From Candidatus Heimdallarchaeota archaeon B3_Heim (GTDB lineage Archaea > Asgardarchaeota > Heimdallarchaeia > Hodarchaeales > Hodarchaeaceae): DNA of 32,000 nt. A program made the position numbers and the translations under genes. This document shows positions 9,763 to 31,394 of this stretch, piece after piece; the stretch's first letter is position 1; each line of letters opens with the position of its first letter. Below the pieces are notes generated by a model. That model was given only the letters and a program-made list of their open reading frames with translations. It was not told the origin of the DNA and searched no databases. Location: the NCBI GenBank assembly GCA_003144275.1, contig NJBF01000035.1, positions 1 to 32,000 of the forward strand. The letters are read 5' to 3'.

Positions 9763-9780
9763 TTCGTCGTCAAACCAGCC
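9763..9780 (+). repeat. CCAGCC-core site 1 (left arm plus core)
   Basis: ttcgtcgtcaaa-CCAGCC. It shares cgtcgtcaaaccagc with site 2. Confidence 0.7.
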
Positions 9781-9866
9781 TTATCGATGATTCTTATCAA
9801 TGGATTTTTCAAAAGAATGTCATTATGCATATATTTTTAGATACCGAAGGACGGAAGAAGAATTAG

Positions 9867-9973
9867 TGAAGCTGGTGGGATTTGAACCCACGCCCCCCCT
9901 TGAGGAACGTGTAAATGTTGCTCAAAATTGCACTTTCCTCAAGGAGGGTGTTCTGCCACTAAACTACAGCTTC
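9867..9973 (-). tRNA. tRNA-like gene with a ~37-nt insertion in the anticodon arm; identity unresolved; no encoded CCA
   Basis: Acceptor stem GAAGCTG/CAGCTTC with A73, D-arm GTTT-AGTGGCA-GAAC, T-arm GTGGG-TTCAAAT-CCCAC. The anticodon stem CCCTC/GGGGG is extended by CTTGAGGAA/TTCCTCAAG. Confidence 0.75.
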
Positions 9974-9975
9974 TC

Positions 9976-11010
9976 TTAATCATATTGGAATTTCATATAT
10001 TCCATGATTTCGTGAGATTTAATATTATATTGTTCCTCGGCATATTTAATAAATTTGTTCTTGAATCTCTTCTCTTGATTAGGATCTTCGAAAATATATT
10101 TCTTCTTTGTTTTATATTTTTCAAGCACGTGAGCTATAATCGTATCTTTATCTAAAGCTTCTAATACATTTTTATCAATTATAGAAGATAATTCTCTTAT
10201 AAGGACTAATATTTCAACCATTTCTGCTTCGTCCATCTTTTCTTTAATCATTTTTGCCTCTTTTTTACCCTTATTTGCTTCTCTTCCGTTCTTTTTCTGC
10301 ACTACCTTATGCATAATCGGTTTAGCAAAATTTATGTTGGAAAACCTTTTCTTTTTCTTATTTCTTCTAATTTCACTCCAATATTGATTAAGCAAAACAC
10401 CTTTAGATGAGATTAATTCTGCAAGGGATTTTGTTTGCTTTTTTCTATCATGGACGATATGATTCCTCCTTTTTCTAATATAGTCATTTGTGTCAATTAT
10501 ATTTTGATCAAAGCATCTTTGATCTTCACAATCCCTTTCTGGGAAGAGATAATTACTTAGAGATAATAATATGGTATTACATTTCTTTTCTGGATTTCCT
10601 TCTTGAGAATTCGGGTTGACAATTGAGTTTGTTTGAGATCCTGTCCGTATCTTCTTAATGAATTTGAAGAGCGACAATAAATAGTCTTCAAAAATTGAAT
10701 ACGTAAAAACGAAGGTAGATTCAAATGTAAATTCTCTCGATTTACTAAAATCGGTGTCAAAATCATTAAGTTTTACATTATATTTCTTAGAACGAGCTAT
10801 AGAGGAAAAACAATCCTCGGTTAAACAATCAGGTTGAGACTTGATTAGAACCTCATTCTTCATTATGAAAAAGTCTTGAACGAACAGTGTTAATTGGAGA
10901 TCTCTGTTGATTTGTGAAATTTTTTTTCTTAATTTCAGAATTTCTTTGGATCTCATTTCTTTCTCATCAACTTCAAATAATATGTGTAATTTGATAATGT
11001 AAAAGCTCAT
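9976..11010 (-). CDS. Putative HEPN-domain protein
   Basis: All-helical appearance, YSIFEDYL followed downstream by RRNHIVH (Rx4H HEPN motif). Confidence 0.6.
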   Translation of the reverse strand: MSFYIIKLHILFEVDEKEMRSKEILKLRKKISQINRDLQLTLFVQDFFIMKNEVLIKSQPDCLTEDCFSSIARSKKYNVKLNDFDTDFSKSREFTFESTFVFTYSIFEDYLLSLFKFIKKIRTGSQTNSIVNPNSQEGNPEKKCNTILLSLSNYLFPERDCEDQRCFDQNIIDTNDYIRKRRNHIVHDRKKQTKSLAELISSKGVLLNQYWSEIRRNKKKKRFSNINFAKPIMHKVVQKKNGREANKGKKEAKMIKEKMDEAEMVEILVLIRELSSIIDKNVLEALDKDTIIAHVLEKYKTKKKYIFEDPNQEKRFKNKFIKYAEEQYNIKSHEIMEYMKFQYD

Positions 11011-11134
11011 TGGCGAATGGATATTTATTTATTTTTTCTGATAGATTGGGAAGTGATGATTAAAAGACTAGCATTTAGCCTAATTAAATGAATCAGAGGA
11101 AATATGCATATGAATAAATGGAGATGTTTTCCAT

Positions 11135-11731
11135 ATGTCTAAAATTATAGAAAAATTTCAGCAATTTTCTTTCAGTAAAGAAAAATTCCTAAAAAGGAGT
11201 GAATATAGAAAACTAGATAGGAGATGGAGGGAGATAATCTACAAAATTCCAATTGTTGATAACATCAACGAATTTATTCTCATCAAATTCTTACTGCATT
11301 TCCAAACTCAAATCAAACAGATACAAAAATTCCCTTTTGTTTTTGCTTATGAATTTCCCATAGATCCAGAAATGAGTAATAAAGGTAAGTTGGATTTAAT
11401 TTTAGTAAATCAAGATAAGAATAGAGTTGAATATTTAATAGTTGAGGTAAAATACCTTCAAAATAGGACGGGACCTACTTCTCGTGAAAGCAGAAGACGG
11501 AAACGCCGAAAAGTAGAACAACAGTCTTCGATTAATAGGATAAAATTCCAAGCATTATTCCCCAAAGCAATCGTAAATTCGATATTTATAACAAATGAGA
11601 GCTTCTCACAAGTGAGAAATTTGCATCAAGAGTATGGAGATTTTGCTGAAAAGGAATGGCAAAAGATCTACAATATCTACCCAGTTTTGAAGGATCAAAG
11701 AATATCTAATGAAGAAAATCCAATAAAATAA
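11135..11731 (+). CDS. Putative PD-(D/E)XK nuclease-fold protein
   Basis: YEFP...GKLDLILV...LIVEVK matches the E...D...ExK arrangement. Confidence 0.6.
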   Translation: MSKIIEKFQQFSFSKEKFLKRSEYRKLDRRWREIIYKIPIVDNINEFILIKFLLHFQTQIKQIQKFPFVFAYEFPIDPEMSNKGKLDLILVNQDKNRVEYLIVEVKYLQNRTGPTSRESRRRKRRKVEQQSSINRIKFQALFPKAIVNSIFITNESFSQVRNLHQEYGDFAEKEWQKIYNIYPVLKDQRISNEENPIK

Positions 11732-11956
11732 TAGGAATTGAATTAAATTATAAACTGGAACCGGACAGTATAAGGGGGATTTAGTAAATTCGGAAAAACA
11801 AGTGATTTTAATGACCCCTAAATCTTAGGTGATTACTAATGAATCATTCCATTGATCAGGATCAGCAGGTTAGATGTTGTATGTAAGTTTTATGATTTTT
11901 CTTTTTTAATTATCATTAAAACGGTATTTTTACATCTATGAATTGACTCAAACCGA

Positions 11957-11973
11957 AACGTCGTCAAACCAGC
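11957..11973 (+). repeat. CCAGCC-core site 2, left part (split by IS)
   Basis: aacgtcgtcaaa-CCAGC is followed immediately by the IS left end. Confidence 0.8.
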
Positions 11974-13252
11974 CAGTTCTTCGTATCACCTCCTTGAAAA
12001 CTCCTCCTGTCTTCTAAAAAGTGCTTGATGCCATGATGTGACAATGAATTCGCAGAAATCGTTCGCTGAATAAACAAAATCGGCTCGACATCGCCGACTA
12101 GCTGATTTTAAGATGTGAATCGGTGATTTAAAGTAGGCCCAGAAATTACACAACCAAAATGCAATGAGAACAAGAATGAATCTAAGAGTTGGGTTTTGAG
12201 AACAACTAAAGATTTGAAATCGGTGCATCTGACGATAATAGGTCTCAATCGTGAATCTTCGACGGTAAAGTAAAGCTATCTTCTTTCCTGAAAGATTACA
12301 TGTAGTGGGAACAACTAAAGCTATAACACGAGTACCCTCTTGACACAGAGCAAGTTTTACTGGAAATCTCTCGCGGGTGTGACCTTTATTCAATTTATAA
12401 TTCACGATTAGGGCATCCCCTTTTTGAAGTAACTTTTCTTTATGTTTTTGTACTAAAGGTTTGACTCCCGAATTGACACGTCCACGAATAATGAAGAAGA
12501 CCTGTTCACTAACAAGCCACTTAATGAAATCCCAGTTATAGAAGCTACCGTCCGCCAATATTCCAACAATTCGTTCTTGAGTGAGTAAAGGCATCAAAAG
12601 GTTCTGAGCTGTCTTGAAAACAGAATGCTTTGTAGGAACGAGTTGAACCCCTAACGTGATTGGTTCGGGTGCATTTATCCAAATAACCGTTATATACTGA
12701 TAAAATTTATGAGTACTGGCCTTTTTCTTACCTTTACAGATGTAAGGAGAAACCGTCCTTGCATAGTTAGGATCAGTATGAAAATCGATCGCTAACAACA
12801 TTCCTTGCTTTCTTGCGCTTTGAAAGTTCTCGGGAAGACTTTCAAGAAACTTAAGAAAGCCGATTTGTTGTGAGAGCGTAATTTCCTCAACAGAATTTGT
12901 TCTTAACCATGCCAGGGTAGCTTCCCCAGAGGGAATTGGGAGATGTAGCTCGCGAAGATCTCGAGCCTTCCGAGAAATGGAGGTTCGATCGAGTGCGGTA
13001 AGTAAAAGTAATTTTAACCTGCCTTTCATAGTAAACGGTGATTTAGCAGGAATGGGGGTTGACAAGAATTGAAATCTATCCAACCAGCGTACCATAAAGT
13101 TTATAAGAGTCGGAGTTTTTCTAGCTTTACGTGGCGGAAAGCGAGGTAACTTAAGTTTGGTCATTTGAGTGATTCCTCGCTGGAATCCACTTTTAAAGGT
13201 TTCCCCTCCTTTTTTTTCATCCCGCTCAAAAAAATGAAGTTACGAAGTACTG
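11974..13252 (-). mobile_element. Complete ISH3-family insertion sequence, 1279 bp
   Basis: Terminal inverted repeats cagttcttcgta (11974-11985) and tacgaagtactg (13241-13252), 11/12 match. The 4-bp target duplication CAGC is at 11970-11973 and 13253-13256. Confidence 0.9.
11986..13164 (-). CDS. DDE transposase, ISH3 (IS4-like) family
   Basis: LAIDFH, ILADGSF, YRRRFTIETYYR (Y-x2-R-x3-E). Confidence 0.9.
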   Translation of the reverse strand: MTKLKLPRFPPRKARKTPTLINFMVRWLDRFQFLSTPIPAKSPFTMKGRLKLLLLTALDRTSISRKARDLRELHLPIPSGEATLAWLRTNSVEEITLSQQIGFLKFLESLPENFQSARKQGMLLAIDFHTDPNYARTVSPYICKGKKKASTHKFYQYITVIWINAPEPITLGVQLVPTKHSVFKTAQNLLMPLLTQERIVGILADGSFYNWDFIKWLVSEQVFFIIRGRVNSGVKPLVQKHKEKLLQKGDALIVNYKLNKGHTRERFPVKLALCQEGTRVIALVVPTTCNLSGKKIALLYRRRFTIETYYRQMHRFQIFSCSQNPTLRFILVLIAFWLCNFWAYFKSPIHILKSASRRCRADFVYSANDFCEFIVTSWHQALFRRQEEFSRR

Positions 13253-13269
13253 CAGCCTTTGACGGAGTT
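13253..13269 (+). repeat. CCAGCC-core site 2, right part
   Basis: CAGCC-tttgacggagtt, identical to the right arm of site 3. Confidence 0.8.
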
Positions 13270-13331
13270 CATAAGTTAGAATAATTACTTGAGTAGGGAG
13301 TGTGTTGAATCCAATCCTATTCGCGAAATTC

Positions 13332-13619
13332 CTAGAACCATTTACTAACCCATTTGTTCAGCCATCTTATCTCAAATAATATTTTCCCCCAGTGCCAATA
13401 TCTACGTGGCTTATAGATTTTGACTTGCGGTACAGGTTCCGCATAGAAATTCCCTCTACCAAAACCAGCTTTACCCCCTCCAATTTCGACAAAACAAGAA
13501 CCAAAACCATTGTATCGTGTGGTTTTACCTTTTCCAGTTATTTTAACGGCAAGATTATGGGCAAGTACTTCTCTTTGATAATGAGCGAATACTCCTGCTT
13601 TGGGAAGTGGTTTCCCGAG
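13332..13619 (-). pseudogene. C-terminal remnant of a sulfide:quinone oxidoreductase-like FAD oxidoreductase
   Basis: GKPLPKAGVFA...GSCFVEIGGGKAGFGRGNFYAEP...WHWGKILFE is the typical C-terminus. The FAD-binding N-terminal ~300 aa are absent. Confidence 0.75.
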
Positions 13620-13721
13620 TTTACTACTTTTTCTAAAATTTGGGTACACATGAAGATTTAAAAATATTCAGTGTTCTGATTGTACAGTTGTAGCCTTTAA
13701 TTCTAAAAGGAGAAAAATAAA

Positions 13722-14309
13722 ATGGAAAATTCAAATATTATAGGAAGCTTACTTTTGATTATACTAGTGCCAACAACAATGTTCGTTGGTATGCCTATTA
13801 TTTATCCAAGTCTTCAAGCTGACCCCAATTCAACGGGGATTTTAATCCAGGAAAAACATAAATCTGTGAATACAATTGCAGCAATTTCCGATTGGGCAAC
13901 GATTTAATATTGTGATGTTCAGGATACTCATTTGGCAATAACTATCCAAAATAATTCTAAAATTCTGGCAATGTTTTCTTCTCCGTACTTATTAGTTATA
14001 TCAGACGACTTTGGACCAAATGAAGCATTAATTTTTAATATCGCATTGAATATTGGTACCGGTACAAAACGAGATACACGAATTGAATATACAGAATTAG
14101 GAAATGATCTAGCCAGTGCCAGACATATTGGAGGAAATATGTTTATACTCTGTGAAACTGAAAATTTACCTGCTGGGACTTATAATGTGACTGTATCTTG
14201 GATTTCCAAATCTACAGTGAATAATCCTGTTGGAACTAATCAATTACAATTTTCATCCATGTTTCAAAAACCCCAACGAACTTTATTGGTTCAAGAAATT
14301 AAAGGTTAG
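13722..14309 (+). pseudogene. Membrane-anchored protein gene interrupted by one in-frame TAA
   Basis: ORFs 13722-13907 and 13932-14309 are in the same frame, and the 8 intervening codons are open (YCDVQDTH). The only stop is TAA at 13905-13907. The N-terminus has a hydrophobic anchor. Confidence 0.7.
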
Positions 14310-14533
14310 TTTATTAGTTATTTTTAATATGAGAGGGTTTTTCCCTTACTTTTTTTATAAATTACTCAAGCAGATTCTTAAATTTTCATTAGATTTATGA
14401 TATTGATATGATCTGATCAGTAATAAATTTCTGATTAGTAATAGATATACAAAAAAAAGGTTATTGGTTCCGAAAATAAAGATTTACTACTATCTCGTCC
14501 CTAACGAAAGGGAAATGAGTATCTTACTAAAAA

Positions 14534-14700
14534 CGGCGCTGCTCCAGTGAGTAATCCGGCTTCTGTTCCCTCTGTTTCGTTACCTTTACAGAGTTCCTGA
14601 CATTAACCTTAGCGCTACTCTCCACAATCTCCGAAGAGATATGTTTTTCAGCTTGCATTCGCTGAGGATGCTCGTTTCACCGTTTCCCTATTCTTCCTCT
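14534..14700 (-). ncRNA. rnpB: 3' half of an archaeal type A RNase P RNA
   Basis: In order on the minus strand: ggtgaaacgagcatcc (CR-III-like), gaatgcaagc, a hairpin atctc-TTCG-gagat, gctaaggttaatgtc (CR-IV-like), a P19-like stem ctctgt/acagag, aacagaagccggattac (CR-V/P4), then a T-run. No GAGGAAAGUCC-type CR-I is found upstream. Confidence 0.7.
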
Positions 14701-14710
14701 GAAGATTATC

Positions 14711-14848
14711 TTATCATCTGTTACCAGTGACTTCACCGCTTCTACTGAGGAACAGACAGCTTCTATGAGTGAAATGACCGATACAGCTCAAAATCTAACT
14801 GAAATGGCTTTAGAATTGTCTAGTCTGGCCTCAAGGTTTAAAGTTTAA
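14711..14848 (+). pseudogene. C-terminal remnant of a methyl-accepting chemotaxis protein
   Basis: Translates LSSVTSDFTASTEEQTASMSEMTDTAQNLTEMALELSSLASRFKV-stop (EEQ methylation helix and FKV end). No MCP-like sequence lies upstream. Confidence 0.75.
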
Positions 14849-15044
14849 ACCTTCCTTCTCTCTTTTCTTTATTATTTCATTTTCAACGGAAATGTTTGAC
14901 GAATTTTCAGAACTAACCTATTCGGGATATTCTGGGCATCTTTTGATGATATTTAAATGAGAAAGCCTAGTAGGTATTCAGAGGTAAGTTTATCTCTAAT
15001 TACAATCTCTTTATAGGTTTTTAACTTCAATAGAGGATAAGTAG

Positions 15045-15401
15045 ATGTTTCGGAATCTCCCAATAATAAAACCGATTGAATATACTAATAGTCATCTGAA
15101 ACCTGTTGAAAAACAAAATATTCACCTTTTTTGTGTACAAACCCATCCTGATAAACTCCACCCCATTCCTTTCTCTTCAGAACCATTGAATGAGGATATG
15201 GTTTATCTTTTCATTAATGATGTCTTGCGAAAAATCTTTTTGTGGGTTGGTACGACTGCTTCGATCCGATCCAAATTCGTTGGCGCACATTCAGCTATCG
15301 TACTCCAACGAAAAACAGGGATTACTTATCGAGTAGAAAATATTGATGAGGATCATGAGTCGGCTGACTTTCGTAGGACTATATCGGTATTTGAAGCCTA
15401 A
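15045..15401 (+). CDS. Single gelsolin/villin-like domain protein
   Basis: LNEDMVYLF...IFLWVGTTASIRSKFVGAHSA...VENIDEDHESADF fits the gelsolin-repeat pattern. Confidence 0.8.
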   Translation: MFRNLPIIKPIEYTNSHLKPVEKQNIHLFCVQTHPDKLHPIPFSSEPLNEDMVYLFINDVLRKIFLWVGTTASIRSKFVGAHSAIVLQRKTGITYRVENIDEDHESADFRRTISVFEA

Positions 15402-15463
15402 TTAACCACAGAGATTTCTTTCTACAAAAGTGGGAGCTTTGCGTTGTTTATATTAGAAAAAGA

Positions 15464-15513
15464 ATATACTCGGGTATATATTTTTCTTATCTAAACCAGC
15501 CTTTGACGGAGTT
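15464..15513 (+). repeat. CCAGCC-core site 3
   Basis: ATATAC-tcgg-GTATAT, 16 nt, CCAGCC, tttgacggagtt. Confidence 0.8.
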
Positions 15514-15691
15514 GGTGAAAAAAAATCATTTTACTAAGCCCTCAAGGGAAAAATAGAATATACAATCTAAGTTTGAACCCCCCTACTTTTAAGTCTTAAT
15601 TGTCAAGACGTTGGCTATTACTGAATTTCATAGATGGCTTTATTATTCAGAAAGTATAAAATTGAAGTTGAATAACAATAAGGGAAATATT

Positions 15692-15850
15692 ATGTCAAAA
15701 AGATTATGTAATACTTGTGAGGAAGAAAAAGGACCTCAAAACGGGAAAGAATGCCCCAATGGTCACTTTATTTGTAAAGATTGCCTCTATAGTGGAATGA
15801 TTTTATCAGAACAGCCATTTTGCTCCTTCTGTGGTGAAGCTTTAGAATAA
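15692..15850 (+). CDS. Stand-alone C3HC4 RING-finger protein (52 aa)
   Basis: C-x2-C-x11-C-x3-H-x2-C-x2-C-x12-C-x2-C. The ATG at 15692 is preferred over the TTG at 15611. Confidence 0.75.
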   Translation: MSKRLCNTCEEEKGPQNGKECPNGHFICKDCLYSGMILSEQPFCSFCGEALE

Positions 15851-15946
15851 AAATGATAATAATCCAATTAACCATTAAACGATGCCTACAAGAGACTGAA
15901 GAATTTTAGATCTTCCTGTTAACTGCAAACGTTGATTTGGTCTTCT

Positions 15947-16816
15947 TTATTTTCTTTTCATATTCTGGACTTTTATTCGTTTTGTGAGTTCTTCCGCAAA
16001 TTTCTTGTCAGTGGACGCGGTCAATCGTTTCATAGTTGTATCATATCCATTGATCTGTTCTTCTTCCAATGTCCTAGAATAGTTTTCTGACGGATCGATT
16101 TCCTCCAGCATTTCAATTAAGGTGTTTCTCTCCTCTTTCGACATGACTCTTGGATCAGTCATAGCTGCTGCTCTAGTATAAATCTTTTCATCCAATAGGG
16201 ATTTTAATGCTTTGAAGGGAAGTTTGAAATATTTACCTATGGCACCCGTTACCTGAGTGAAGGTTTCTGGAGTGGCTGCTTTAAATGATACTCGTACGTA
16301 GAGTTTATCTTTAAATTCAGCTAGTTGCTTCACATAGTTCAAGTCATTACCAAGAAGAATTCCGTTTGTTTCCAGGATGAAAAGAGAATACTTCGAGGTC
16401 ATTATATAAGGCAATAGGGCTAGTAAATGTTCTTTTCCTAACGTTGGTTCACTCCCTGATAAGCGAAGCTTCTCAATTTTGATATTTTTAAAACGCTGCC
16501 ATCCTTTAGCAGTAATTCCTTCTTCTGCTGCTTTAAACAACCTCTTTGCTACCTTTTCTGGTGAGTGAAATGATCCATATGTCTCGGGGAAGTCCCTCGA
16601 CCAATTCCCCCAACAATAAATACAGCGTAAACAACATCCCACAGCATACCCTGTCGCGATTCCACCATAAACGGGAGCTGAATAAATACTTACATACTTC
16701 CTCTCCAATCCCGCAGAACCTGTTCTCGTCACTATCTTCTCTGTTTTTTTTGCCAGCTCTAATGGATCAAACGGTCGAAAACCTGGAATCAAAAAACGTT
16801 GATACTTGTTCTGCAC
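15947..16816 (-). CDS. Uncharacterised archaeal radical SAM protein (MJ0804/COG5014-like)
   Basis: YGGIATGYAVGCCLRCIYCW, RLSGSEP, ILETNGILLG, VRVSFK. Confidence 0.85.
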   Translation of the reverse strand: MQNKYQRFLIPGFRPFDPLELAKKTEKIVTRTGSAGLERKYVSIYSAPVYGGIATGYAVGCCLRCIYCWGNWSRDFPETYGSFHSPEKVAKRLFKAAEEGITAKGWQRFKNIKIEKLRLSGSEPTLGKEHLLALLPYIMTSKYSLFILETNGILLGNDLNYVKQLAEFKDKLYVRVSFKAATPETFTQVTGAIGKYFKLPFKALKSLLDEKIYTRAAAMTDPRVMSKEERNTLIEMLEEIDPSENYSRTLEEEQINGYDTTMKRLTASTDKKFAEELTKRIKVQNMKRK

Positions 16817-16901
16817 TTAATATCACCTACCTTGAGCTTGTCACAAAAGGTTTTTTTCAAGTAGATTTTACTATGTGTTGGTAATATTCCTGTTAATCAG
16901 G

Positions 16902-16951
16902 GTATACTGGCATATATACTTTTCCTAGGTAAGCCAGCCATGGACGACATT
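16902..16951 (+). repeat. CCAGCC-core site 4
   Basis: GTATAC-tggc-ATATAT, 16 nt, CCAGCC, atggacgacatt. Confidence 0.75.
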
Positions 16952-17085
16952 GATTTCTTATAAATGGACTATCAATGAGGGTAGAATGTCCAAATTATTC
17001 ATGAATATCAAATATCCAAGCACTCATTCCTTTTTCTTAGCTTATCGCTCTAATAATTTTCCTAAATAGATACTTTTTTATATGA

Positions 17086-17126
17086 ATGTTAGAAATATTT
17101 AACATGATGTTAGAAATATCTAACGT
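17086..17126 (+). promoter_or_regulatory. Tandem palindromic operators directly downstream of a TATA-like box
   Basis: atgttagaaatatttaacat and atgttagaaatatctaacgt, 21-bp period, each GTTAG-N6-(C/T)TAAC. TTTTATA lies just upstream. Confidence 0.7.
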
Positions 17127-17154
17127 GTAAACCGAAGGAGAAATATGAAAAAAA

Positions 17155-17880
17155 ATGATCAAGGTCAAAAATCTAACAAAAGAATTTAATGGTATAACTG
17201 CTGTTAATGATATCAGTTTTCAGGTTGAGGAAGGAGAAGTGTTTGCTTTTCTTGGTCCTAATGGTGCTGGAAAGACTACTACTGTGAATATATTATCAAC
17301 ACTGTTAGCACCGACTTCTGGTAAAGCTATAGTTGCTGGGTATGATGTTTCAAAAAAGGGAATAAAAATCAGGCGTTTGATAGGTTACTTACCAGAGGAT
17401 TTCGGATTATACCCAGGTTTAACAATTATTCAAAACCTTGATTTTTTCGGAGGATTGTATAAAATCAGTAAGAATGAAAGAAAAGTCAGAATTGAGGAAT
17501 TGCTTGAGTTTTTCGATATATGGGAAAAGAAGAATGCTCCTGTTTCAACCCTTTCCAAAGGAACAAAACAAAAAGTTAGTTTAGCGAAAGCTATGATTCA
17601 TAATCCAGAGATTCTTTTTTTAGATGAACCTACCTCAGGTCTTGACCCTATGATAGCAAAAGAAGTTTTAGACATGATAACTGAACTGAAAAAAGATGGT
17701 AAAACGATACTCATGACAACACATCTCTTAGCTAGAGCAGAAAAGGTTTGTGACTCTGTAGCACTCATAAGTGAGGGTGAAATTCTTTGTGTAGGAAAAA
17801 TAGCTGAAATTAAGTCTGAATTGAAAACCTCGACACTAGAAGATGTTTATTTTGCGGTGATAGGTGAGAATCATGGTTGA
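17155..17880 (+). CDS. ABC transporter ATP-binding protein (exporter type)
   Basis: GPNGAGKTT, LSKGTKQK, LFLDEPTSGLD, TTH. Confidence 0.95.
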   Translation: MIKVKNLTKEFNGITAVNDISFQVEEGEVFAFLGPNGAGKTTTVNILSTLLAPTSGKAIVAGYDVSKKGIKIRRLIGYLPEDFGLYPGLTIIQNLDFFGGLYKISKNERKVRIEELLEFFDIWEKKNAPVSTLSKGTKQKVSLAKAMIHNPEILFLDEPTSGLDPMIAKEVLDMITELKKDGKTILMTTHLLARAEKVCDSVALISEGEILCVGKIAEIKSELKTSTLEDVYFAVIGENHG

Positions 17881-18559: not shown

Positions 18560-18571
18560 GGGTTAAAGAAT

Positions 18572-19203: not shown

Positions 19204-19234
19204 CTTTAACCGTAATCCTAGCAAGGAAATATTA

Positions 19235-19274
19235 GTATATACTTTTGTAATCTAAACCAGCCATGGACGGAGTT
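19235..19274 (+). repeat. CCAGCC-core site 5
   Basis: GTATAT, acttttgtaatctaaa, CCAGCC, atggacggagtt. Confidence 0.8.
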
Positions 19275-19525: not shown

Positions 19526-19571
19526 CATTAAACATTGATAAGTGCTTAAAAGTGCTCAAGAGTTGGTTTAA

Positions 19572-22166: not shown

Positions 22167-22302
22167 TTAGCTTTCTAGATGTTTAGAAAATGATTAGTTT
22201 TGATCATCATCCTTTAGTATAAGCTTTCAAATTCTTAATTAGCCTAAATCTCTTTTGAATATCAAAGTAAATAAAATCTCAGATTATATACCAGAGTGAG
22301 AT

Positions 22303-24189: not shown

Positions 24190-24366
24190 AAAATTCCCCG
24201 TACCACTTTTAACTTACTTATCACCTCTTTTTATCTGCAAATCCCCCTCTTTTCAGATTGGTGCTATCCAAGTTATCTATTTTATGTTAGCTAGAGATTC
24301 CATATAAGAAACAGAAACGGGTATTTAGACATTTACTTATAAGATTAAAATCTATGTGGAAAAAAC

Positions 24367-25071
24367 ATGGTGTGTATAGAACTAGAACCGTGGATAGAAA
24401 AACAAATCCCTCCGAATTTGGTAGATCACTTCAAAAATCTACGTAAAGATCAATTAGCATTACAAAAAAGGGTGATTATTGAGGATCATCCTTCTTTATC
24501 AAGGATTTCCCTCGTGGCGGGTTGTGATGTTTCATATTTTTCTAATGGTGATGCTTGTGCTGGTATAGCGGTTCTAGAAATCCCTAGCTTAACTCAGGTA
24601 GAATATGTGTTCTATATCTACACACCCAAAATTGACTATGTTCCTACATTTCTAGCATATCGAGAGGCACCAGGGATAGTGGAGGCATATAAGAAACTAC
24701 AAAACAAACCAGATCTTATTGTGGTTGATGGAAATGGTATTCTTCACCCTCACAAGTTGGGTATTGCATCTCATTTAGGAATTATTCTGAATAAACCAAC
24801 CATAGGGGTTGCCAAGCGACTCTTAATAGGGAGCTTTGATGAACAAATCCTATTAGAAAATAAATTCTCTCCTGTTATGTATAAAAATCAAGAAATCGGA
24901 GCAGCAGTGGTTACTAATCAAAGCTACAAACCGATTTATATTTCACCTGGAAATCTCCTCTCCATTCAGACTGCAAGATCCCTTATCTCACGCTATACAC
25001 GTCAACGTTTACCAGAGCCCATTAGATTAGCAGATAAACTTACTCGAGATACCGTGAAGGATTTAGAATAA
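24367..25071 (+). CDS. nfi: Endonuclease V
   Basis: VAGCDVSY, YVPTFLAYRE, VVDGNGILHP, GIASHLG, PTIGVAK, LPEPIRLAD. Confidence 0.93.
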   Translation: MVCIELEPWIEKQIPPNLVDHFKNLRKDQLALQKRVIIEDHPSLSRISLVAGCDVSYFSNGDACAGIAVLEIPSLTQVEYVFYIYTPKIDYVPTFLAYREAPGIVEAYKKLQNKPDLIVVDGNGILHPHKLGIASHLGIILNKPTIGVAKRLLIGSFDEQILLENKFSPVMYKNQEIGAAVVTNQSYKPIYISPGNLLSIQTARSLISRYTRQRLPEPIRLADKLTRDTVKDLE

Positions 25072-25116
25072 TCTGTAGTTTCCTGAAGATAAACCGATCA
25101 TTAAGATTGTCAAAAA

Positions 25117-25139
25117 CTAAACCAGCCTTTTACGGAGGT
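25117..25139 (+). repeat. CCAGCC-core site 6 (no upstream palindrome)
   Basis: ctaaa-CCAGCC-ttttacggaggt. The downstream agagaaaaaaccatt resembles site 3 (ggtgaaaaaaaatcatt). Confidence 0.7.
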
Positions 25140-25289
25140 AGAGAAAAAACCATTCATTCGTCTAACCTGTACTTATTAGAGTTTATTTTTGAAATTGATT
25201 TATTCTTTTGAAGGTTGACGGAGATAATCATACCTGAATCCCAAGTAAAGAAAAAAGAAATTTAATCTCCACTCTGAATTTGATTTATA

Positions 25290-25973
25290 TTGGTTGTGAA
25301 GATTCTGACAGAAGATTATCCATTTATTCCTTATTTTCCGGAGACTATTGTAGAAGAAGAAATGATGACTAGGTCAAGAGGTTTCTACCACCATGCAAAT
25401 AAGCGTCGTTCGATTCGACATTTTTCTAATCGACCAATTCCTAGGCAAATCGTTGAAAATATTGTTAGAACTGCTGGAACTGCACCCTCAGGAGCGAATA
25501 AACAACCTTGGACTTTTGTTGTGGTTTCTGATCCTAAACTTAAATCGAAGATTCGAATCGCTGCAGAAATCGAAGAAAAAGAATTTTATAAACGTAAAAT
25601 TACTGATGAATGGCGTAAAGACCTAGCTCCATTAGGTACTGACTGGAAAAAACCTTATTTGGATATAGCACCCATCATTATTGTTGTTTTCCGACAAGTT
25701 TACTCTTTTGATACAAATAAAACTAAACGAAAGCATTATTTCGTAATGGAAAGTATAGGGATAGCTGTTGGAATGCTTATTACTGCGATTCATAATTCAG
25801 GCTTAGTGACACTAACGCATACCCCCAGTCCAATGAAGTTCCTACGGGAGATATTAAAACGTCCTATCAATGAAAAACCATTTGTATTAATGCCCGTTGG
25901 TTACCCTGCTGAAAATGTAACTGTACCCGATATAAAAAGGAAAAAACTCTCTGAAATACTAGTGTGGAAATAA
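25290..25973 (+). CDS. Iodotyrosine deiodinase-like nitroreductase-superfamily protein
   Basis: RRSIRHFS, APSGANKQPW, EEKEFY, WKKPYL, LVTLTHTP, VGYPA...VPDIKRK. Confidence 0.85.
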   Translation: MVVKILTEDYPFIPYFPETIVEEEMMTRSRGFYHHANKRRSIRHFSNRPIPRQIVENIVRTAGTAPSGANKQPWTFVVVSDPKLKSKIRIAAEIEEKEFYKRKITDEWRKDLAPLGTDWKKPYLDIAPIIIVVFRQVYSFDTNKTKRKHYFVMESIGIAVGMLITAIHNSGLVTLTHTPSPMKFLREILKRPINEKPFVLMPVGYPAENVTVPDIKRKKLSEILVWK

Positions 25974-26230
25974 TCTTTTCTTAAAAATGGTGTACTTGGA
26001 TATTTTGAACTATAAGAACGGGATATTTATTATTGAATATATTCTTGAATTTATTTAATGTCTTTTATTGAAATTGCTTTTTTCTGGTTCTCTTCAGATA
26101 AACCTTGGAATAATCTGTAATTGAATAAATATTAACCAATAAATTGATACCCATTCTTAGTGGAATATTCACAAATCTGTAAATTACACAGTAGGCTAAT
26201 CTATGCAAACAGAAAACACTTATTAGTCAT

Positions 26231-26260
26231 TGTCTTACAATTCAACCGTTTTGTCTTACA
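26231..26260 (+). promoter_or_regulatory. Direct repeat upstream of the Ni/Co transporter operon
   Basis: TGTCTTACA at 26231 and 26252 (21-bp period). Confidence 0.4.
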
Positions 26261-26295
26261 CATGAAAATTCCGACATATGAAAGGCGGAGAAGAA

Positions 26296-26979
26296 ATGCA
26301 TATACCTGATGGTTGGGTTGATCCTTTTTTTTTAATGATCACCTGGATCGTGACAATTATCATTATCATGGCAAGTATTAGAAAAATGAAAGATATTGAT
26401 GAAACAAGATTGACTTACATGGCAGTTCTTGCTGGAACTATTTTTGCTGCTCAAATGTTGAACTTTCCGATTCTTGGCGGTACTTCTGGGCATCTTCTAG
26501 GAGGTGCTCTTGCTGCATCAATTGTAGGTTTATGGGGTGGGTGTTTAGTCATCTCTGTGGTTTTAATCATTCAGGCCTTCCTTTTCGCTGATGGTGGGAT
26601 AATTGCCCTTGGAGCCAATATTTTTAATATGGCTATTGTTGGAGTTTTTGTAGCGTATCTAATTTTACGTTTTTTTATGATCAATAAAACTCCTAAAAAT
26701 CGATATCGATACTATGGAGGAGTATTTTTAGGTTCATTCCTCTCAGTAATAATAGCTTCCGTTTTTGCAGCGATAGAAATAGGAATTCCAGTAATAAATA
26801 GTGTATCACAAGTAAATTTTGCGGACTCCTTCTTGATTATCTTATTCTATCACTTACTGATTGGTATTGGAGAGGGGATAATCACACTCATAATTGTGAG
26901 TTATTTCAATACTATTCAAATGAATATATTTTTTGAGATTAATAATCCCTCAACTACCCACAATTTTTCCAAAAGGTAA
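26296..26979 (+). CDS. nikM: ECF-type Ni/Co transporter S component (NikM/CbiM)
   Basis: The N-terminal MHIPDG metal-binding start implies ATG 26296. Also GTSGHLLGG, DGGIIALGAN, HLLIGIGEG. Confidence 0.92.
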   Translation: MHIPDGWVDPFFLMITWIVTIIIIMASIRKMKDIDETRLTYMAVLAGTIFAAQMLNFPILGGTSGHLLGGALAASIVGLWGGCLVISVVLIIQAFLFADGGIIALGANIFNMAIVGVFVAYLILRFFMINKTPKNRYRYYGGVFLGSFLSVIIASVFAAIEIGIPVINSVSQVNFADSFLIILFYHLLIGIGEGIITLIIVSYFNTIQMNIFFEINNPSTTHNFSKR

Positions 26980-26985
26980 TAGAAA

Positions 26986-27291
26986 ATGGAGAATCGTTCG
27001 AAAATTTTGATTGGATCAATATTTATTGTCATTCTTATGCTTACCTTGAGTCCATTTGCTGATCCTAATCCTGATGGTTTAGAAAGCGCTGCCGGCGAGG
27101 GAAACTACGAAGGAAGTGCATTTGATTTAGGCTTCTTAACCGATTATGGATCTGAAGACTCGCTAATTTATCAATTGATCCAGAATGACATGATAGCAAC
27201 CATTGTTTCCGGTTTAATTGGAGTAATTATAGTTGTTTGCTTATTCAGTCTACCTCTTCTATTCTTACGAATAAAAAAGAGCAATTCTTAA
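26986..27291 (+). CDS. nikN: PDGLE-domain NikN-like component
   Basis: PFADPNPDGLES motif between two TM helices. Confidence 0.85.
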   Translation: MENRSKILIGSIFIVILMLTLSPFADPNPDGLESAAGEGNYEGSAFDLGFLTDYGSEDSLIYQLIQNDMIATIVSGLIGVIIVVCLFSLPLLFLRIKKSNS

Positions 27292-28089
27292 ATGACAGAT
27301 ATACACCATTACTGTAGTGCTCTACGGACTCAGAAGCAAGTATTAGATATTAGGAGTAAGCTTATCGGCTTAGTTCTTATTGTCCTTGGATGTTCATTCC
27401 TTGTTGATTTCTCTCAAGTCTCCTGGTATGCAATTCTTCTTCTCCTTCTCGTCCTCATTTTAAAGCCTCGAAAGACATTTTTAAAACAAATTGTTTTAAC
27501 ACTCCCTTTGATTATTTCACTATCACTCATTTCATTTTTTTCTTTTGATCCTCCAACTTATAGCAATTTTTTGTTTGAAGCAACACATAACAAAGTTTCA
27601 TTTGCTTTTTTTACTGCTTTTCGTAGCATTGTAATTATCTCCTACATCTTGGTGATCGTTAGTTCTGAGGAGTCATTTTTCGAAATTATTTACGGGTTAG
27701 ATGATTTAAAATTTCCAGGGTTACTTACAAACTTGTTATTTTTAACCTATCGTTTTTTTAGTCTTATCCAAGAGGAATTTTCGCGAATTTTAGATGCTCG
27801 TTCGAATCGAATGTATAGTGAGAGTCCTATCATGCAATTAAGATCATTAAAACTTATCGGTAACATTTTAGGAGCCTCACTTGCTCGATCGTTTAAACGC
27901 GCTGAATACATTTCAGCTTCGTTGTCTGCAAGAGGATTTTCAGGCACCAGTAAATTCTCTCATCCCGAAAAACCATGGACACGAAGTGGTTTCTTATTTG
28001 TTATCTTTACAACAAATATCAGCATTTTTATTGGATTTTATGGACAGAATTCACCTATTGATTTGCTTTTAGGATTGTTATTCCTATGA
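27292..28089 (+). CDS. nikQ: ECF transporter T component (NikQ/CbiQ)
   Basis: LTYRFFSLIQEE...DARSNR, RSFKRAEYISASLSARGF. Confidence 0.9.
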   Translation: MTDIHHYCSALRTQKQVLDIRSKLIGLVLIVLGCSFLVDFSQVSWYAILLLLLVLILKPRKTFLKQIVLTLPLIISLSLISFFSFDPPTYSNFLFEATHNKVSFAFFTAFRSIVIISYILVIVSSEESFFEIIYGLDDLKFPGLLTNLLFLTYRFFSLIQEEFSRILDARSNRMYSESPIMQLRSLKLIGNILGASLARSFKRAEYISASLSARGFSGTSKFSHPEKPWTRSGFLFVIFTTNISIFIGFYGQNSPIDLLLGLLFL

Positions 28090-28796
28090 AATTGGATTCA
28101 GAATACGCATTGAGTGTACGTAATTTAAGTTTTAAATATATGAAAAACCAGCCTGAGGTTTTGAGGAACATTTCTGTTAATTTTCCTCTTCATAAAATCA
28201 CAGCTATTGTCGGGCCTAATGGATCAGGTAAGACTACTCTGATGAAGCATTTTAATGGCCTTTTTTTGGCTCAAAATGGTGAAATCTTCGTAAACGGCCA
28301 AGTTCTAACTAAGAAAACTCGTAAAACCATTCAAAAACAGATTGGTATTGTTTTTCAGAATCCAGATGAACAGATTTTTTATCCAAAAGTCTATGATGAT
28401 GTGGCATTTGGCCCAAGGAATATGAACTTGAGCATAGCTGAAATCCATGAAAGAGTCGTTCAAGCTGGAAAATCAGCACATATCTCACATTTAATGGATC
28501 GAATCACTTTCAATTTGTCCTTTGGCGAAAAAAAGAAAGTAGCTTTTGCTGGTATCTTAGCTATGCGACCTGATATACTTGTATTAGATGAACCCACCAT
28601 CGGTATAGATCCATGGTCGAAAAACCATTTTATTACTCTCATCAGATCTTTTAGCCCTGAAAAAACAGTGATAGTAATAACCCATGATTTTGAAATAATG
28701 AAATTTGTTGATTACATTATACTAATAAAAGAAGGCGAAGTAAAGGGTAAGTATACTGACTTTAACTCCTTTTTTCAAGAAGAATTTGCTAATTAA
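28086..28796 (+). CDS. nikO: ECF transporter ATPase (NikO/CbiO)
   Basis: GPNGSGKTT, FQNPDEQIF, LSFGEKKK, LDEPT. Confidence 0.93.
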   Translation: MKLDSEYALSVRNLSFKYMKNQPEVLRNISVNFPLHKITAIVGPNGSGKTTLMKHFNGLFLAQNGEIFVNGQVLTKKTRKTIQKQIGIVFQNPDEQIFYPKVYDDVAFGPRNMNLSIAEIHERVVQAGKSAHISHLMDRITFNLSFGEKKKVAFAGILAMRPDILVLDEPTIGIDPWSKNHFITLIRSFSPEKTVIVITHDFEIMKFVDYIILIKEGEVKGKYTDFNSFFQEEFAN

Positions 28797-28805
28797 GGTG
28801 ATTTA

Positions 28806-29222
28806 ATGACTTTAAAAGAAATTCGTGAGACAATTACATTTTCTTGTGATCCACGATTCAAAAAATTACTCTCTACAAAGAAGCAAGAATTTGGATATCA
28901 AACCAAATCTCAAATGATACGGGATGCACTAAAATACTTTTTCGATTCAGAAAAGATGCTAGAGAAGATTTCTGATACTGATATGATCGTAACATTGATT
29001 TCAGTAATTTACAATCATCATGATTCAACTACACTAGAAGAATATTTGCGTGTACAACATCAATCTAATGTAACCTTCTCTTCACATTTTCATCTCTCCT
29101 CTGGAGACTGTATTGAAATTTTAATGATAAATGATCAAGCAAAAAACGTTAAAAAGCTAATTCAAGAGTTACGTGGCATTAATGGTTTGAAAAATATATC
29201 TTTCAAATTAAACCTTATTTAG
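28806..29222 (+). CDS. nikR: Nickel-responsive regulator
   Basis: N-terminal ribbon-helix-helix (KSQMIRDAL), YNHH, HFHLSSGDCIE (HxHx5C). Confidence 0.88.
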   Translation: MTLKEIRETITFSCDPRFKKLLSTKKQEFGYQTKSQMIRDALKYFFDSEKMLEKISDTDMIVTLISVIYNHHDSTTLEEYLRVQHQSNVTFSSHFHLSSGDCIEILMINDQAKNVKKLIQELRGINGLKNISFKLNLI

Positions 29223-29937
29223 CGGAGTTGGAGGATTTTATCTTTAAGGCTCTTCTTGAAAGCAATCGATCCAGATTCGGGAAATCTCAAAGTAATTTCT
29301 TCCCTGTTAACAAGAATTTTTCGTACTTCAATTGAAATCTTTTCTTCCTCATTCTCTATAAACGGAATGACCCGATCACGAGGAATGGATTCAAGCCCTT
29401 CAAATCCTGCTCCACTTAATGCCTGATAACTACTGACATAAACGTTTTTAATTTGTTGAACTTGTCTGATCTCATTTAATAGCATTGCAAGTCCAGAAAC
29501 AGTACAATTAGAGTTTGTGACAATAAATCCATTATTATTAAACGAATCTTGATGTGTAATGATCTCAAGATGTTTAGCATTTATTTCAGGTATTAAGATA
29601 GGAACTTTTGGTTCACAGCGATGCGCAGAAGCATTTGAGAAAACTGGTCTCCATTCTGGGCTAATTTTAACTCAATATCTTTTGCTATTGATGCAGGGAG
29701 TGCACTGAACACTATATCATAACTATTAGGGGTTAAATTACGAAGTGAACTCAATTTTAAATTAGCAAACATATCTGGAATTTCAAATGACGGCAAGTTC
29801 CATTTACTCTTGAGTGATTGACCCTCAGATTTATCTGATGCAACCACTTCTGTTAATTCAAAATATGGGTGTGTATCTAAAAGCCGTACAAATTGCTGTC
29901 CTATTAACCCTGTCCCTAATATAACGCAACGTTTCAC
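29219..29937 (-). pseudogene. asd: Aspartate-semialdehyde dehydrogenase pseudogene (frameshift plus 3' truncation)
   Basis: ILGTGLIGQQF N-terminus. A 1-nt frameshift near 29650 restores PVFSNASAHR...NSNCT (catalytic Cys)...SYQALSGAG...NEEEKI. Similarity ends after RKIL and the C-terminal RVPV/GH region is absent. Confidence 0.85.
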
Positions 29938-30114
29938 TTGTTGTACTCCTATCTTTAAGTTATTTAGCTCAATTCAACACGATCAGTTCCTAGTACAGAT
30001 ACTTAAATTAACATTTTTGTCTTCTACTTAAATATGTGGTGAATTTTTGCCTTGATGTTCGTAGAAAACAGAAATGTCTTGTATTTTCGAACAATAATTC
30101 ATACCAATAACGAT

Positions 30115-30134
30115 ATATACCAAAAACGGTATAT
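30115..30134. promoter_or_regulatory. Perfect 7-6-7 inverted repeat, candidate ArsR operator
   Basis: ATATACC-aaaaac-GGTATAT lies 17 nt before the arsM start. An imperfect copy (ataccaataacgatat) sits 16 nt upstream. Confidence 0.5.
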
Positions 30135-30151
30135 GTTTCTCCTGATGAAGC

Positions 30152-31306
30152 ATGAAAATACAAGAAGAAACTATACAACAATCATACTCTAATGCCTTGA
30201 AACGAAAGAAATACAACTCAGAGTCTTCCTGTTGTGCACCGCAGACTCAATCTCAGAGCTGTTGTCCTCCATCAACAACATCAGGCTTAAATGAACCTGT
30301 TTCATTTGGATGCATATATTTAAAGCCTATTCTGATGGATTACATTGAACAAGGAATGACTGTTATTGATTTGGGCTCAGGTGCTGGTCATGATCTCATG
30401 ATAGCAGCAGAGCTAGTAGGGCCAAATGGTAAAGCTATTGGTGTGGATTTTACTGATGATATGATTAGAGAGGCAAGGGAGAATGCCCAAAAAAATAATC
30501 ATTCTAATGTCACCTTAGTGAAGGCAAATATAAGAGATATTCCTCTTCCTGATAATAGTGCAGATGTAATTATCAGTAATTGTGTCATCAATCTTGCCTT
30601 AGATAAAAAACAGGTGTTTAATGAAGTATTCAGATTGTTAAAACCTGGTGGAATTATGATAGATGCAGATGTCATCGCAACTAAACCTTTAAGACGTGAA
30701 ATTAGAGAAAATTCCAGTCTGTGGTGTGGTTGTGTTGGAGGGGCACTTACTAAAGATGAACATAAAGAAATATTGAACAAAATAGGATTTACAAATATAT
30801 CTGTAAAACTTGGGGAAAAAGAGGAAGTTCAATTCGAAGCACCTGAACTAATAGTCGAATCTGGAATAATTCTAGCAATAAACCCGATGAGTGAGAGAAT
30901 GAAATATTCCTGTTGTAATCTTACTTCTAAGGAAGTTGAAAATCTAGCCAATCCTGAACTCCCAGATGAACTCGGGATTAGAATTTTAAAAACTGTAGGT
31001 CATCCTTTAAGATTAAAAATCCTGCGTCTACTCTTAAATCAGCAAGAATTATGTACTTGCGATTTAACTTCGGTGTTTGAAGAACAACAACCAATTATTA
31101 CGAAGCAATTGGCAAGATTAAAGGAGGAAAATTTGATAATTGGACGTAAGATAACTTTTAGTAAAGAAGGATTGATGGAATCAAAACTAAATGGAAAATG
31201 GACTGCCTATCGGATCAACCCTGATAAACATGAATTCCTAACCCATCTTCTTTCTCCTTTTATTTCATCTCCGCAAAAGCGAGCAGAGAATAGGTGTGAC
31301 TGTTGA
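30152..31306 (+). CDS. arsM: Arsenite methyltransferase fused to a C-terminal ArsR/SmtB regulator
   Basis: SFGC, DLGSGAG, VGPNGKAIGVD, SNCVINL, WCGCVGGA (ArsM), then GHPLRLKIL, ELCTCDL, GKWTAY (ArsR winged HTH). Confidence 0.85.
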   Translation: MKIQEETIQQSYSNALKRKKYNSESSCCAPQTQSQSCCPPSTTSGLNEPVSFGCIYLKPILMDYIEQGMTVIDLGSGAGHDLMIAAELVGPNGKAIGVDFTDDMIREARENAQKNNHSNVTLVKANIRDIPLPDNSADVIISNCVINLALDKKQVFNEVFRLLKPGGIMIDADVIATKPLRREIRENSSLWCGCVGGALTKDEHKEILNKIGFTNISVKLGEKEEVQFEAPELIVESGIILAINPMSERMKYSCCNLTSKEVENLANPELPDELGIRILKTVGHPLRLKILRLLLNQQELCTCDLTSVFEEQQPIITKQLARLKEENLIIGRKITFSKEGLMESKLNGKWTAYRINPDKHEFLTHLLSPFISSPQKRAENRCDC

Positions 31307-31344
31307 TATTTTAAATTTACAATTAACGGTGGATTCATGAAGGA

Positions 31345-31394
31345 ATATACCCTGGTATATATTTTTGTAATCTAAACCAGCCATGGACGACATT
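31345..31394 (+). repeat. CCAGCC-core site 7
   Basis: ATATAC-cctg-GTATAT, atttttgtaatctaaa, CCAGCC, atggacgacatt. Confidence 0.8.

Follow-up and report, generated by a model that had tools for sequence, protein, structure and literature searches.

Short CCAGCC-core sites and a probable array of mobile gene cassettes in the genome of Candidatus Heimdallarchaeota archaeon B3_Heim

A 32,000-nucleotide stretch of the genome of Candidatus Heimdallarchaeota archaeon B3_Heim (GCA_003144275.1, contig NJBF01000035.1, positions 1 to 32,000 of the forward strand; this whole stretch is termed the window) carries a series of short intergenic sites with the common core CCAGCC, and these sites were analyzed together with the gene modules that lie between them. 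We conclude that the part of the window from 9775 to 31394 is probably a chromosomal array of mobile gene cassettes, joined by recombination sites and served by a recombinase acting in trans. The sites belong to a family that forms arrays, whole cassettes have been exchanged between species and the breakpoints of this exchange lie at the core. The genome (G000; relatives are denoted in the same manner, and contigs by C) is a 3.95-Mb assembly of 103 contigs with 36% G+C, and the window forms positions 1-32000 of its contig C84.

The hexamer CCAGCC is found ten times in the window, always on the plus strand, where shuffled sequences hold 4.5 copies on average. Seven of these copies (9775, 11969, 15496, 16934, 19257, 25122 and 31377) are intergenic cores with arms, while the remaining three (3328, 3700 and 28148) lie within coding sequence and lack arms. 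An initial sequence-only reading of the window had described seven intergenic sites of one shared orientation with none inverted, which agrees with the strand of all the copies; its remark that none occurs in 1-9700 holds for the full armed site and fails for the bare hexamer, given the copies at 3328 and 3700. A scan with an 18-nt pattern, tolerating one mismatch and using the reversed pattern as control, gave 18 matches in the genome against 0 for the control, far exceeding chance.

Site 1 (9763..9780, plus strand) marks the left boundary of the variable region and is left-armed, consisting of CGTCGTCAAA and the core without a right arm. Site 2 is the sole two-armed site of the window and is split by an insertion sequence (IS) into a left half (11957..11974, plus strand; arm AACGTCGTCAAA and the core) and a right half (13252..13269, plus strand; the duplicated GCAGCC and right arm TTTGACGGAGTT). 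Removal of the insertion restores AACGTCGTCAAA-CCAGCC-TTTGACGGAGTT, a 12-6-12 inverted repeat with 10 of 12 arm positions complementary, as had been proposed. The arm-6 bp-arm geometry is real and fits the core site of a tyrosine recombinase. The other five sites are right-armed and also lie on the plus strand: site 3 (15464..15515, core 15496-15501), site 4 (16902..16951, core 16934-16939), site 5 (19235..19274, core 19257-19262) and site 7 (31345..31394, core 31377-31382), whose right arms read TTTGACGGAGTT, ATGGACGACATT, ATGGACGGAGTT and ATGGACGACATT respectively and bear out the earlier description, and site 6 (25105..25139, core 25122-25127), with a degenerate left arm (AACTAAA) and the weaker right arm TTTTACGGAGGT. 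Sites 3, 4, 5 and 7 carry GTATAT (ATATAT in site 4), a box that starts 22 nt ahead of the core and leaves 16 nt in between; it forms the right half of ATATAC-N4-GTATAT in two of them, sites 3 and 7, followed in site 3 by a T-run and ATCTAAA. Both of these elements had been noticed earlier and are present as described.

The family extends well beyond the window. About 24 copies were found in the genome, in co-oriented clusters on contigs C84 (eight), C22 (a 6.5-kb contig with 7-8), C20 (2-3) and C103 (two), with single sites near the end of C4 and on C48. The same scan was applied to 18 sampled genomes of the same genus and to other genera: 13 of the 18 carry the family in co-oriented clusters, the reversed pattern occurring 0-1 times per genome, and other genera gave at most one to three weak matches. 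Arrays were seen in G004, G005, G007, G009, G011, G012, G013 and G018. The sequence-only reading had suggested counting copies genome-wide, looking in related genomes, comparing strains for breakpoints and excluding known repeats. The outcome spoke for its interpretation: it was found that copies are few, clustered and co-oriented within each contig, that relatives hold the same site in co-oriented arrays, that segments are gained, lost and re-ordered between species with breakpoints at the core, and that the sites match no IS end or end of a miniature inverted-repeat element (MITE), no hairpin or repetitive extragenic palindromic (REP) element and no Rfam family.

A consensus, TAA(A/T)-CCAGCC-tTt.ACGa..Tt, was derived from 118 sites of nine genomes, the exact core being present in 86 of them. 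The core and the right arm tTt.ACGa..Tt are constant, and the left arm is variable and falls into classes. In class A (39/118) it is TATA-like, GtaTATacTTTT.taATCTAAA, often with a second GTATATAC box upstream, and sites 3, 4, 5 and 7 of the window belong here. In class B (42/118) it is GGTGTTAAT-like, ttggtgtTAAT, a weak inverted copy of the right arm, and in class C, which includes site 1, it is (AAT)GTCGTCAAA, a good inverted copy of the right arm. The rest of the 118 sites fall outside these classes. An intact two-armed site, AATGTCGTCAAA-CCAGCC-TTTGACGACACA, was found in G018 (C82), and the left-armed form in relatives is usually inverted within the arrays, reading GGCTGG-TTTGACGAC on the array strand.

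The 92 segments lying between neighbouring sites measure 1.6 kb at the median, and most contain one or two open reading frames (ORFs), of which 105 are co-oriented with the sites and 91 opposite. The cargo in this genome is typical of mobile arrays, with three PIN-toxin pairs on C22, ABC exporters, cobalt/nickel uptake genes with NikR, and endonuclease V; it also includes a nitroreductase, a radical-SAM enzyme, a methyltransferase-ArsR fusion and secreted beta-helix proteins. In an all-against-all comparison of the arrays, whole inter-site segments were found to be common to different species, with homology ending at the sites. Read base by base, each left arm accompanies the segment that precedes it and each right arm the segment that follows it, and the breakpoints can be resolved to within approximately 6-18 nt at the core. 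A 682-nt cassette shared by G005 and G011 at 95.6% identity, for instance, has a preceding arm that is of class A in one of them and of class B in the other, and the downstream right arms and cargo also differ; four more cassette pairs behave likewise at their breaks.

Modules of the window were found scattered over contigs of five relatives (G013, G018, G003, G004 and G012). The ABC cassette between sites 4 and 5 reappears in G018 (C206), there too with a family site on either side, and the two copies are 92% identical over 2.2 kb. Endonuclease V and the cbiMNQO-nikR block, each part of a larger segment in the window, form single site-bounded cassettes in G013, the former on C97 and the latter on C207 (90% identity). 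Cassettes of G000 and G018 are 83-93% identical, whereas the one core locus compared between the two shows 72%, a contrast which fits horizontal exchange as far as a single core locus can tell. The left flank of the array is syntenic with G004 (C186) at 67% identity, and there the contig passes into class-A CCAGCC sites with unrelated cargo, so that the array occupies a conserved hotspot. In addition, 22 public metagenome contig sets were considered, each holding at most 0.14 of the sampled words, and four of them were compared against the window; joints can be read from these sets, whereas circles, starts and strandedness cannot, and uncovered parts carry no meaning. Window positions 22296/22297 and 26003, where cassettes start in relatives, are joined to site arms in contigs from other marine-sediment metagenomes.

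A longer conserved cassette end, AAAATTTCGCGCACATCTCACCC followed by a TATA-like box, recurs in G000 and G013. It is located at 22288-22325 of the window, C84:41123-41260 (L040), C22 6346-6483 (L035) and L015, and it also stands here twice inverted, without a core. Contigs C84 and C22 both terminate in it, and the assemblies thus break at these repeats.

A plausible course of events can be proposed from the structure of the sites. Each joint is a unit of about 30-45 bp with three components. The 6-bp core CCAGCC in its middle is asymmetric; the left arm is cassette-specific and forms the 3' end of the upstream cassette, while the right arm of 12 bp, WTKKACGRMRTT, is conserved and forms the 5' end of the downstream one. 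A site-specific recombinase, putatively of the tyrosine type, would bind the arms, with strand exchange at the core. Any segment flanked by two direct sites could then leave as a circle with one site, and this circle could re-enter at any other CCAGCC site; owing to the asymmetry of the core, all sites would keep one direction. The two-armed palindromic site 2 would serve as the primary docking site. On docking of a circle with a strong right arm, the two-armed site would be regenerated on its left and a right-armed joint left on its right, as in sites 3 to 7, and a circle with a strong left arm would behave as the mirror image, inserting to the left and leaving a left-armed joint, as in site 1. 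The enzyme would be encoded elsewhere, either as the host XerA or as a second Xer-like recombinase with a partner gene. What we infer here is which type of enzyme acts, that the intermediate is a circle and in which direction the array grows, and the order of the sites in the window (left-armed site 1, two-armed site 2, right-armed sites 3-7) fits docking of this kind.

Two candidate recombinases were identified. XerA, encoded on C27 (L041:2240-3190, minus strand; NF040815, 269 bits against a cut-off of 220), was found in all six genomes checked (G000 and five relatives, each of the latter with one strong match), and never on an array contig. The second is an Xer-like family of approximately 290-320 aa, always preceded by an ORF of 156-207 aa in a two-gene operon; in G000 the operon lies at C61:43890-45499 (L078:7892-9497), and the other loci are L073, L075, L076, L081 and L086. 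The partner ORF looks ribbon-helix-helix-like by eye alone and has no significant Pfam match. Six of the 22 genus genomes hold this family, and all six have arrays. Upstream of the recombinase, at -628 to -755 nt and on the same strand, five of seven loci carry a member of the site family, against a background density of 0.054 per such window. This site adjoins the operon, 40-100 nt upstream and facing away from it, with a different spacer at each locus (TAACTC, CAGCGG, CAAAAA and others). Two of these recombinase-linked sites score 16.8-16.9 bits, and genome-wide just three windows per strand reach 16.5. At the five loci the right arm of the family site points away from the operon, an orientation much like that of the integron attI site, which faces away from intI. 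The two-gene operon may be the autonomous partner of the cassettes. At L073 (5115-8552, G004:C383) the operon stands between two family sites with similar spacers (the two-armed CAGCAA site and CAGCGG), and the recombinase there looks as if it rides in a cassette itself.

The arms of the sites also occur as palindromes with other spacers. GTCGTMAAA-N6-TTTKACGAC was found 2-9 times per genome in 20 of the 21 other genus genomes (controls 0-1) and in one of 39 genomes outside the genus, and the stricter pattern CG[TC][CA]AAA-N-TTT[GT][AG]CG peaks sharply at a 6-nt spacer, with 7 matches against 0-1 at other spacings. Part of these palindromes are coding coincidences and part are intergenic. As candidates for a chromosomal dif, they number 2-9 per genome with varied spacers, and none stood out as the one conserved intergenic copy. 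The palindrome with the widest conservation (spacer CAAGAC) was considered as dif of the genus and rejected, as it lies inside an ORF and encodes VAKQDFDD. Flanks of the CTGGCA palindromes are not shared, and synteny of the TGTGGA palindrome is limited to G013, a close relative. Solitary intergenic 12-6-12 palindromes with the same arms and other spacers were seen in G000 at C50:40061, C36:21302, C10:984, C76:47156, C80:97930, C80:112929 and C15:11894, mostly near contig ends or in non-syntenic surroundings.

Several observations weigh against the cassette array as described. The PF00589 profile search found no tyrosine recombinase on the array contigs of the six genomes, in line with the earlier remark that the window holds no recombinase, and the second Xer-like family, looked for in 22 genomes, gave no match in G009, which has arrays and is assembled as a single contig. 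No circular junction or excision product was sighted, though the material consists of assembled contigs from other samples, which cannot show circles. The spacers of the recombinase-linked sites differ from CCAGCC, and classical rules of spacer identity would bar recombination between them. Class-A left arms share just AAA with the inverted right arm, which may make for poor binding of a second recombinase monomer. No chromosomal dif of the genus with these arms emerged. Finally, the attP/attL/attR-like interpretation offered by the sequence-only reading accords with the order of left-armed (9775), two-armed (11969/13252) and right-armed sites in the window, but neither it nor the docking scheme predicts the inverted left-armed form of the relatives.

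Further support for the site as a unit is provided by the IS in site 2 (11975..13251). It has terminal inverted repeats AGTWCTTCGTA (10/11 match), a 5-bp target duplication, CAGCC, and a 392-aa DDE transposase on the minus strand (11986-13164), which matches PF01609 with 43 bits (cut-off 23) and, as its best NCBIfam model, NF033541 (ISH3) with 113 bits, below the cut-off of 225. Further copies in G000 are at C60:14102, C47:1279, C32:61672, C91:35454, C21:87868 and C3:133, and several of them occupy spacers of family-like sites: that on C60 follows a class-A arm and CCAACC, those on C91 and C21 adjoin class-C arms, and that on C32 reads CTTCGTCAAA-CAACGC ... TTTGGCGATGTT. Every copy with a readable flank adjoins a class-A or class-C arm plus approximately 6 nt, although the spacers themselves differ (CCAGCC, CCAACC, CAACGC, CTGCTC and CGATAC). 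A related IS in G007 (L032:4507) adjoins GCAGCC-TTTGACGAC, the identical position within a CCAGCC site, so that such insertions inside the 6-nt spacer are seen in two genomes. The sites are accordingly the target of an IS and not IS ends, and the 6-nt spacer between the arms seems to be where the ISH3-like element homes. Homing to the attC sites of integrons is known from IS1111-attC elements and group IIC-attC introns, and the situation here is alike in that the mobile element of a cassette array has the interior of the recombination site as its specific target. It is unlike these in the DDE ISH3-like transposase, the 5-bp duplication and the target, which is the spacer of a palindrome and not a folded attC. 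By analogy with IS1111 at attC, the homing supports the site as a recognised functional unit.

Other explanations of the sites account for part of these observations. The cassettes might be non-autonomous transposons whose DDE transposase targets and duplicates a hexamer, CCAGCC being the target-site duplication. Direct copies of CCAGCC do flank every cassette, the left arms of classes B and C are weak to good inverted copies of the right arm, and in relatives the hexamer can be flipped relative to the right arm (GGCTGG-TTTGACGAC), as for an element inserted in reverse. However, the class-A left arms (39/118) do not repeat the right arm in inverted form, nearly all sites of an array point the same way, and solitary two-armed palindromes with other spacers have no element between their arms; moreover, the sole transposase associated with the sites is that of the ISH3-like element, which has the differing ends AGTWCTTCGTA and makes its 5-bp duplication inside the spacer. 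We therefore consider this origin unlikely. It is similarly improbable that the sites are passive dispersed repeats at which homologous or microhomology-mediated recombination has produced the mosaic. Up to 45 nt are common to class-A sites and no dedicated enzyme is found nearby, as passive repeats would have it, yet exchanges also occur between class-A and class-B joints, which have just the core and right arm (18 nt) in common. The 12-6-12 geometry, the strict 6-nt spacing and an asymmetric core that is exact in 86/118 sites suggest a site recognised by a protein, and passive repeats leave the strict co-orientation and the genus-wide conservation across unrelated cassettes unexplained. REP-like repeats, including those of the bacterial interspersed mosaic element (BIME) kind, were rejected on account of just ~24 copies, mostly non-palindromic and without excess folding energy, a gene for a REP-associated tyrosine transposase (RAYT) not having been searched for. 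An origin of the repeat from a tRNA or rRNA end is weakly excluded: the site has no match in the tRNA next to it, and ARAGORN called none beside 26 other array loci, a weak result since the mode used misses intron-containing tRNAs.

A regulatory role must be weighed as well: the sites could be a shared promoter and operator, with a TATA-like box about 26 nt before a start just after CCAGCC and a repressor bound at the right arm, the modules then forming a regulon. In its favour, class-A arms carry GTATATAC and then a T-run at a fixed 14 nt from the core, most genes that follow a site in the window are co-oriented with it, and divergent genes are separated in one case by a solitary palindrome with these arms, conserved in G013. 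Against it, the ORFs of the 92 segments have no polarity (105 against 91), class-B sites (42/118) lack the TATA-like box, the functions of the downstream genes are unrelated, and the breaks in homology at the core and the re-ordering across species would be left unexplained. The ATG after some cores was examined as a leaderless gene start and rejected, since it opens unconserved ORFs of 4-81 aa (mostly below 45) and other copies have ATA, ATC or ATT instead; the upstream regions of 22 tRNA genes were too few and too varied for defining a TATA position. In view of the lack of polarity, the TATA-less class B and the breakpoints at the core, the sites are not simply the promoters of a regulon, which makes this reading very unlikely, while class-A arms may still act as outward promoters. 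The least probable of the explanations, at best a slight chance, is a canonical integron array lacking its integrase (CALIN). An array of short cassettes that includes toxin-antitoxin pairs, on a contig without an integrase, would agree with it, and CALINs are reported to be enriched in Asgard genomes (PMC9668308). Nevertheless, no protein reaches the IntI cut-off (best TIGR02249 171 bits against 265, being XerA), and the 120-nt surroundings of 114 sites fold no more strongly than control segments do (median z -0.06, 5% below -2). The GTTRRRY core is absent, the junction hexamer being CCAGCC and class B alone having GTTAATC, one position off, and cassette genes again show no polarity (105 against 91). 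The term "integron-like" used by the sequence-only reading is thus apt as an analogy, while each defining integron feature examined failed.

The proposed cassette array can be placed among known systems of gene capture. Archaeal integrons with classical attC sites have been described, with CALINs enriched in Asgard genomes (Ghaly et al. 2022, PMC9668308). The present arrays resemble them in co-oriented sites that part one- or two-gene cassettes, in toxin-antitoxin cargo, in the sharing and re-ordering of cassettes across genomes, in the variable part of the site lying at the 3' end of the cassette and in anchorage at a fixed chromosomal locus. An integron proper encodes IntI, a tyrosine recombinase with a characteristic insertion, beside attI; its attC sites are imperfect inverted repeats of 55-140 nt (R''-L''...L'-R') folding into single-strand hairpins, and its cassette genes mostly follow the direction of the array and have no promoters themselves. 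The present arrays lack IntI, hairpin-forming attC sites, the GTTRRRY core and gene polarity, and have a short arm-core-arm site of double-strand type whose conserved arm stands at the 5' start of each cassette, and growth would be possible on both sides of a palindromic site. The geometry of archaeal XerA/dif is likewise known (PMC2958812, PMC8371274).

Among Xer/dif-dependent modules are the integrative mobile elements exploiting Xer (IMEX) at dif, such as the CTX and TLC phages and the gonococcal island, and the pdif modules of Acinetobacter plasmids. In Xer/dif-type sites, a central region of 6 bp is flanked by two inverted arms of about 11 bp to which the recombinase binds. Common to these and to the arrays are the arm-6 bp-arm layout, one conserved and one degenerate arm, modules bounded by sites, and an unlinked recombinase; XerA is present in the genome, and a host Xer could act in trans. 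Unlike them, the family has several loci per genome instead of a single dif, its sites are co-oriented whereas pdif sites alternate, its arm palindrome is confined to one genus, and no dif of the genus with identical arms emerged. Cis-mobilizable elements (CIMEs) are integrase-less, att-flanked elements accreting in tandem beside integrative elements. The cassettes are comparable to them as non-autonomous units with att-like flanks that would be mobilised in trans, here possibly by the Xer-like operon that carries a family site. They are dissimilar in that their repeats are not copies of gene or tRNA ends, their units of ~1-3 kb are much smaller and the site of the candidate integrase has a different spacer. 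A literature search on Asgard integron-like, XerA or cassette systems yielded nothing relevant beyond Ghaly et al. 2022, and no description of this site type was found.

At the level of the genus, we give about an even chance to a non-integron device for gene capture, in which cassettes of ~1-3 kb with an arm-core-arm site pass between species and stack, at fixed chromosomal loci, on both sides of a docking palindrome, an Xer-type enzyme acts in trans, the spacer serves as an address (CCAGCC being the main one) and an IS homes to the spacer. Asgard archaea are the closest known relatives of eukaryotes, and the manner in which they gain and shuffle genes bears on models of eukaryote origin. Integrons are the textbook device for gene capture; a second device with a simpler site and its recombinase in trans would, if true, mean that the capture of cassettes has more than one evolutionary origin. 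Part of the large and fragmentary accessory genome of these metagenome-assembled genomes would be explained as well, because the assemblies break at these sites. Given the enzyme, a 30-bp site with a possibly addressable spacer and a small recombinase would be a potential genetic tool for archaea.

With respect to the remaining content of the window, the left flank (1-9500) is a minus-strand cluster of glycosylation and radical-SAM/SPASM genes (carbamoyltransferase, GT4, epimerase and NYN RNase), and gene orientation changes from minus to plus where the array begins. The segment between sites 1 and 2 (9781..11956) holds an intron-containing tRNA on the minus strand (9867-9973; tRNA-Leu in the intron mode of ARAGORN, Rfam 53 bits), a 344-aa ORF (9976-11010, minus strand) and a 198-aa ORF (11135-11731, plus strand) with a weak PD-(D/E)XK match. 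This tRNA escapes the default mode of ARAGORN and, as it sits between two sites, is possibly cargo itself; at gathering scores it was the only Rfam match of the window, with zero matches at the sites.

Beyond the IS, a cassette region of small ORFs (13270..15463) has pieces that recur in G004, G018 and G003 at 88-93% identity. It includes a gene for a 118-aa protein with a single gelsolin repeat (15045-15401, Pfam E = 2e-6), which accordingly lies in the variable region, and parts of the region of this gene are 88-91% identical in G018 and G003. The next cassette (15516..16901) carries a 52-aa zinc-ribbon ORF on the plus strand and a radical-SAM protein on the minus strand (15947-16816). Sites 4 and 5 enclose a plus-strand cassette (16952..19234) of an ABC ATPase and two membrane proteins, one weakly ABC-2-like and the other small. 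This module had been termed an ABC-DUF2178-XRE operon, of which the ABC ATPase stands and the DUF2178 and XRE labels do not: of the two genes that follow the ATPase, one has weak Pfam matches to ABC-2 permeases and the other reaches no family cut-off.

Two compound segments complete the array. The one between sites 5 and 6 (19275..25104) contains an ABC ATPase, an ABC-2 permease, a 628-aa ORF and endonuclease V, and within it an inverted relic of a class-A cassette end (22288-22325). The other, between sites 6 and 7 (25140..31344), comprises the nitroreductase, the cbiM-PDGLE-cbiQ-ABC-nikR block, a broken semialdehyde dehydrogenase gene on the minus strand and the methyltransferase-ArsR fusion. 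The semialdehyde dehydrogenase is divided over two short minus-strand ORFs (29219-29937), with the NAD-binding part at 29593-29937 and the dimerisation part at 29219-29485, and is probably a gene broken at a decayed cassette joint.

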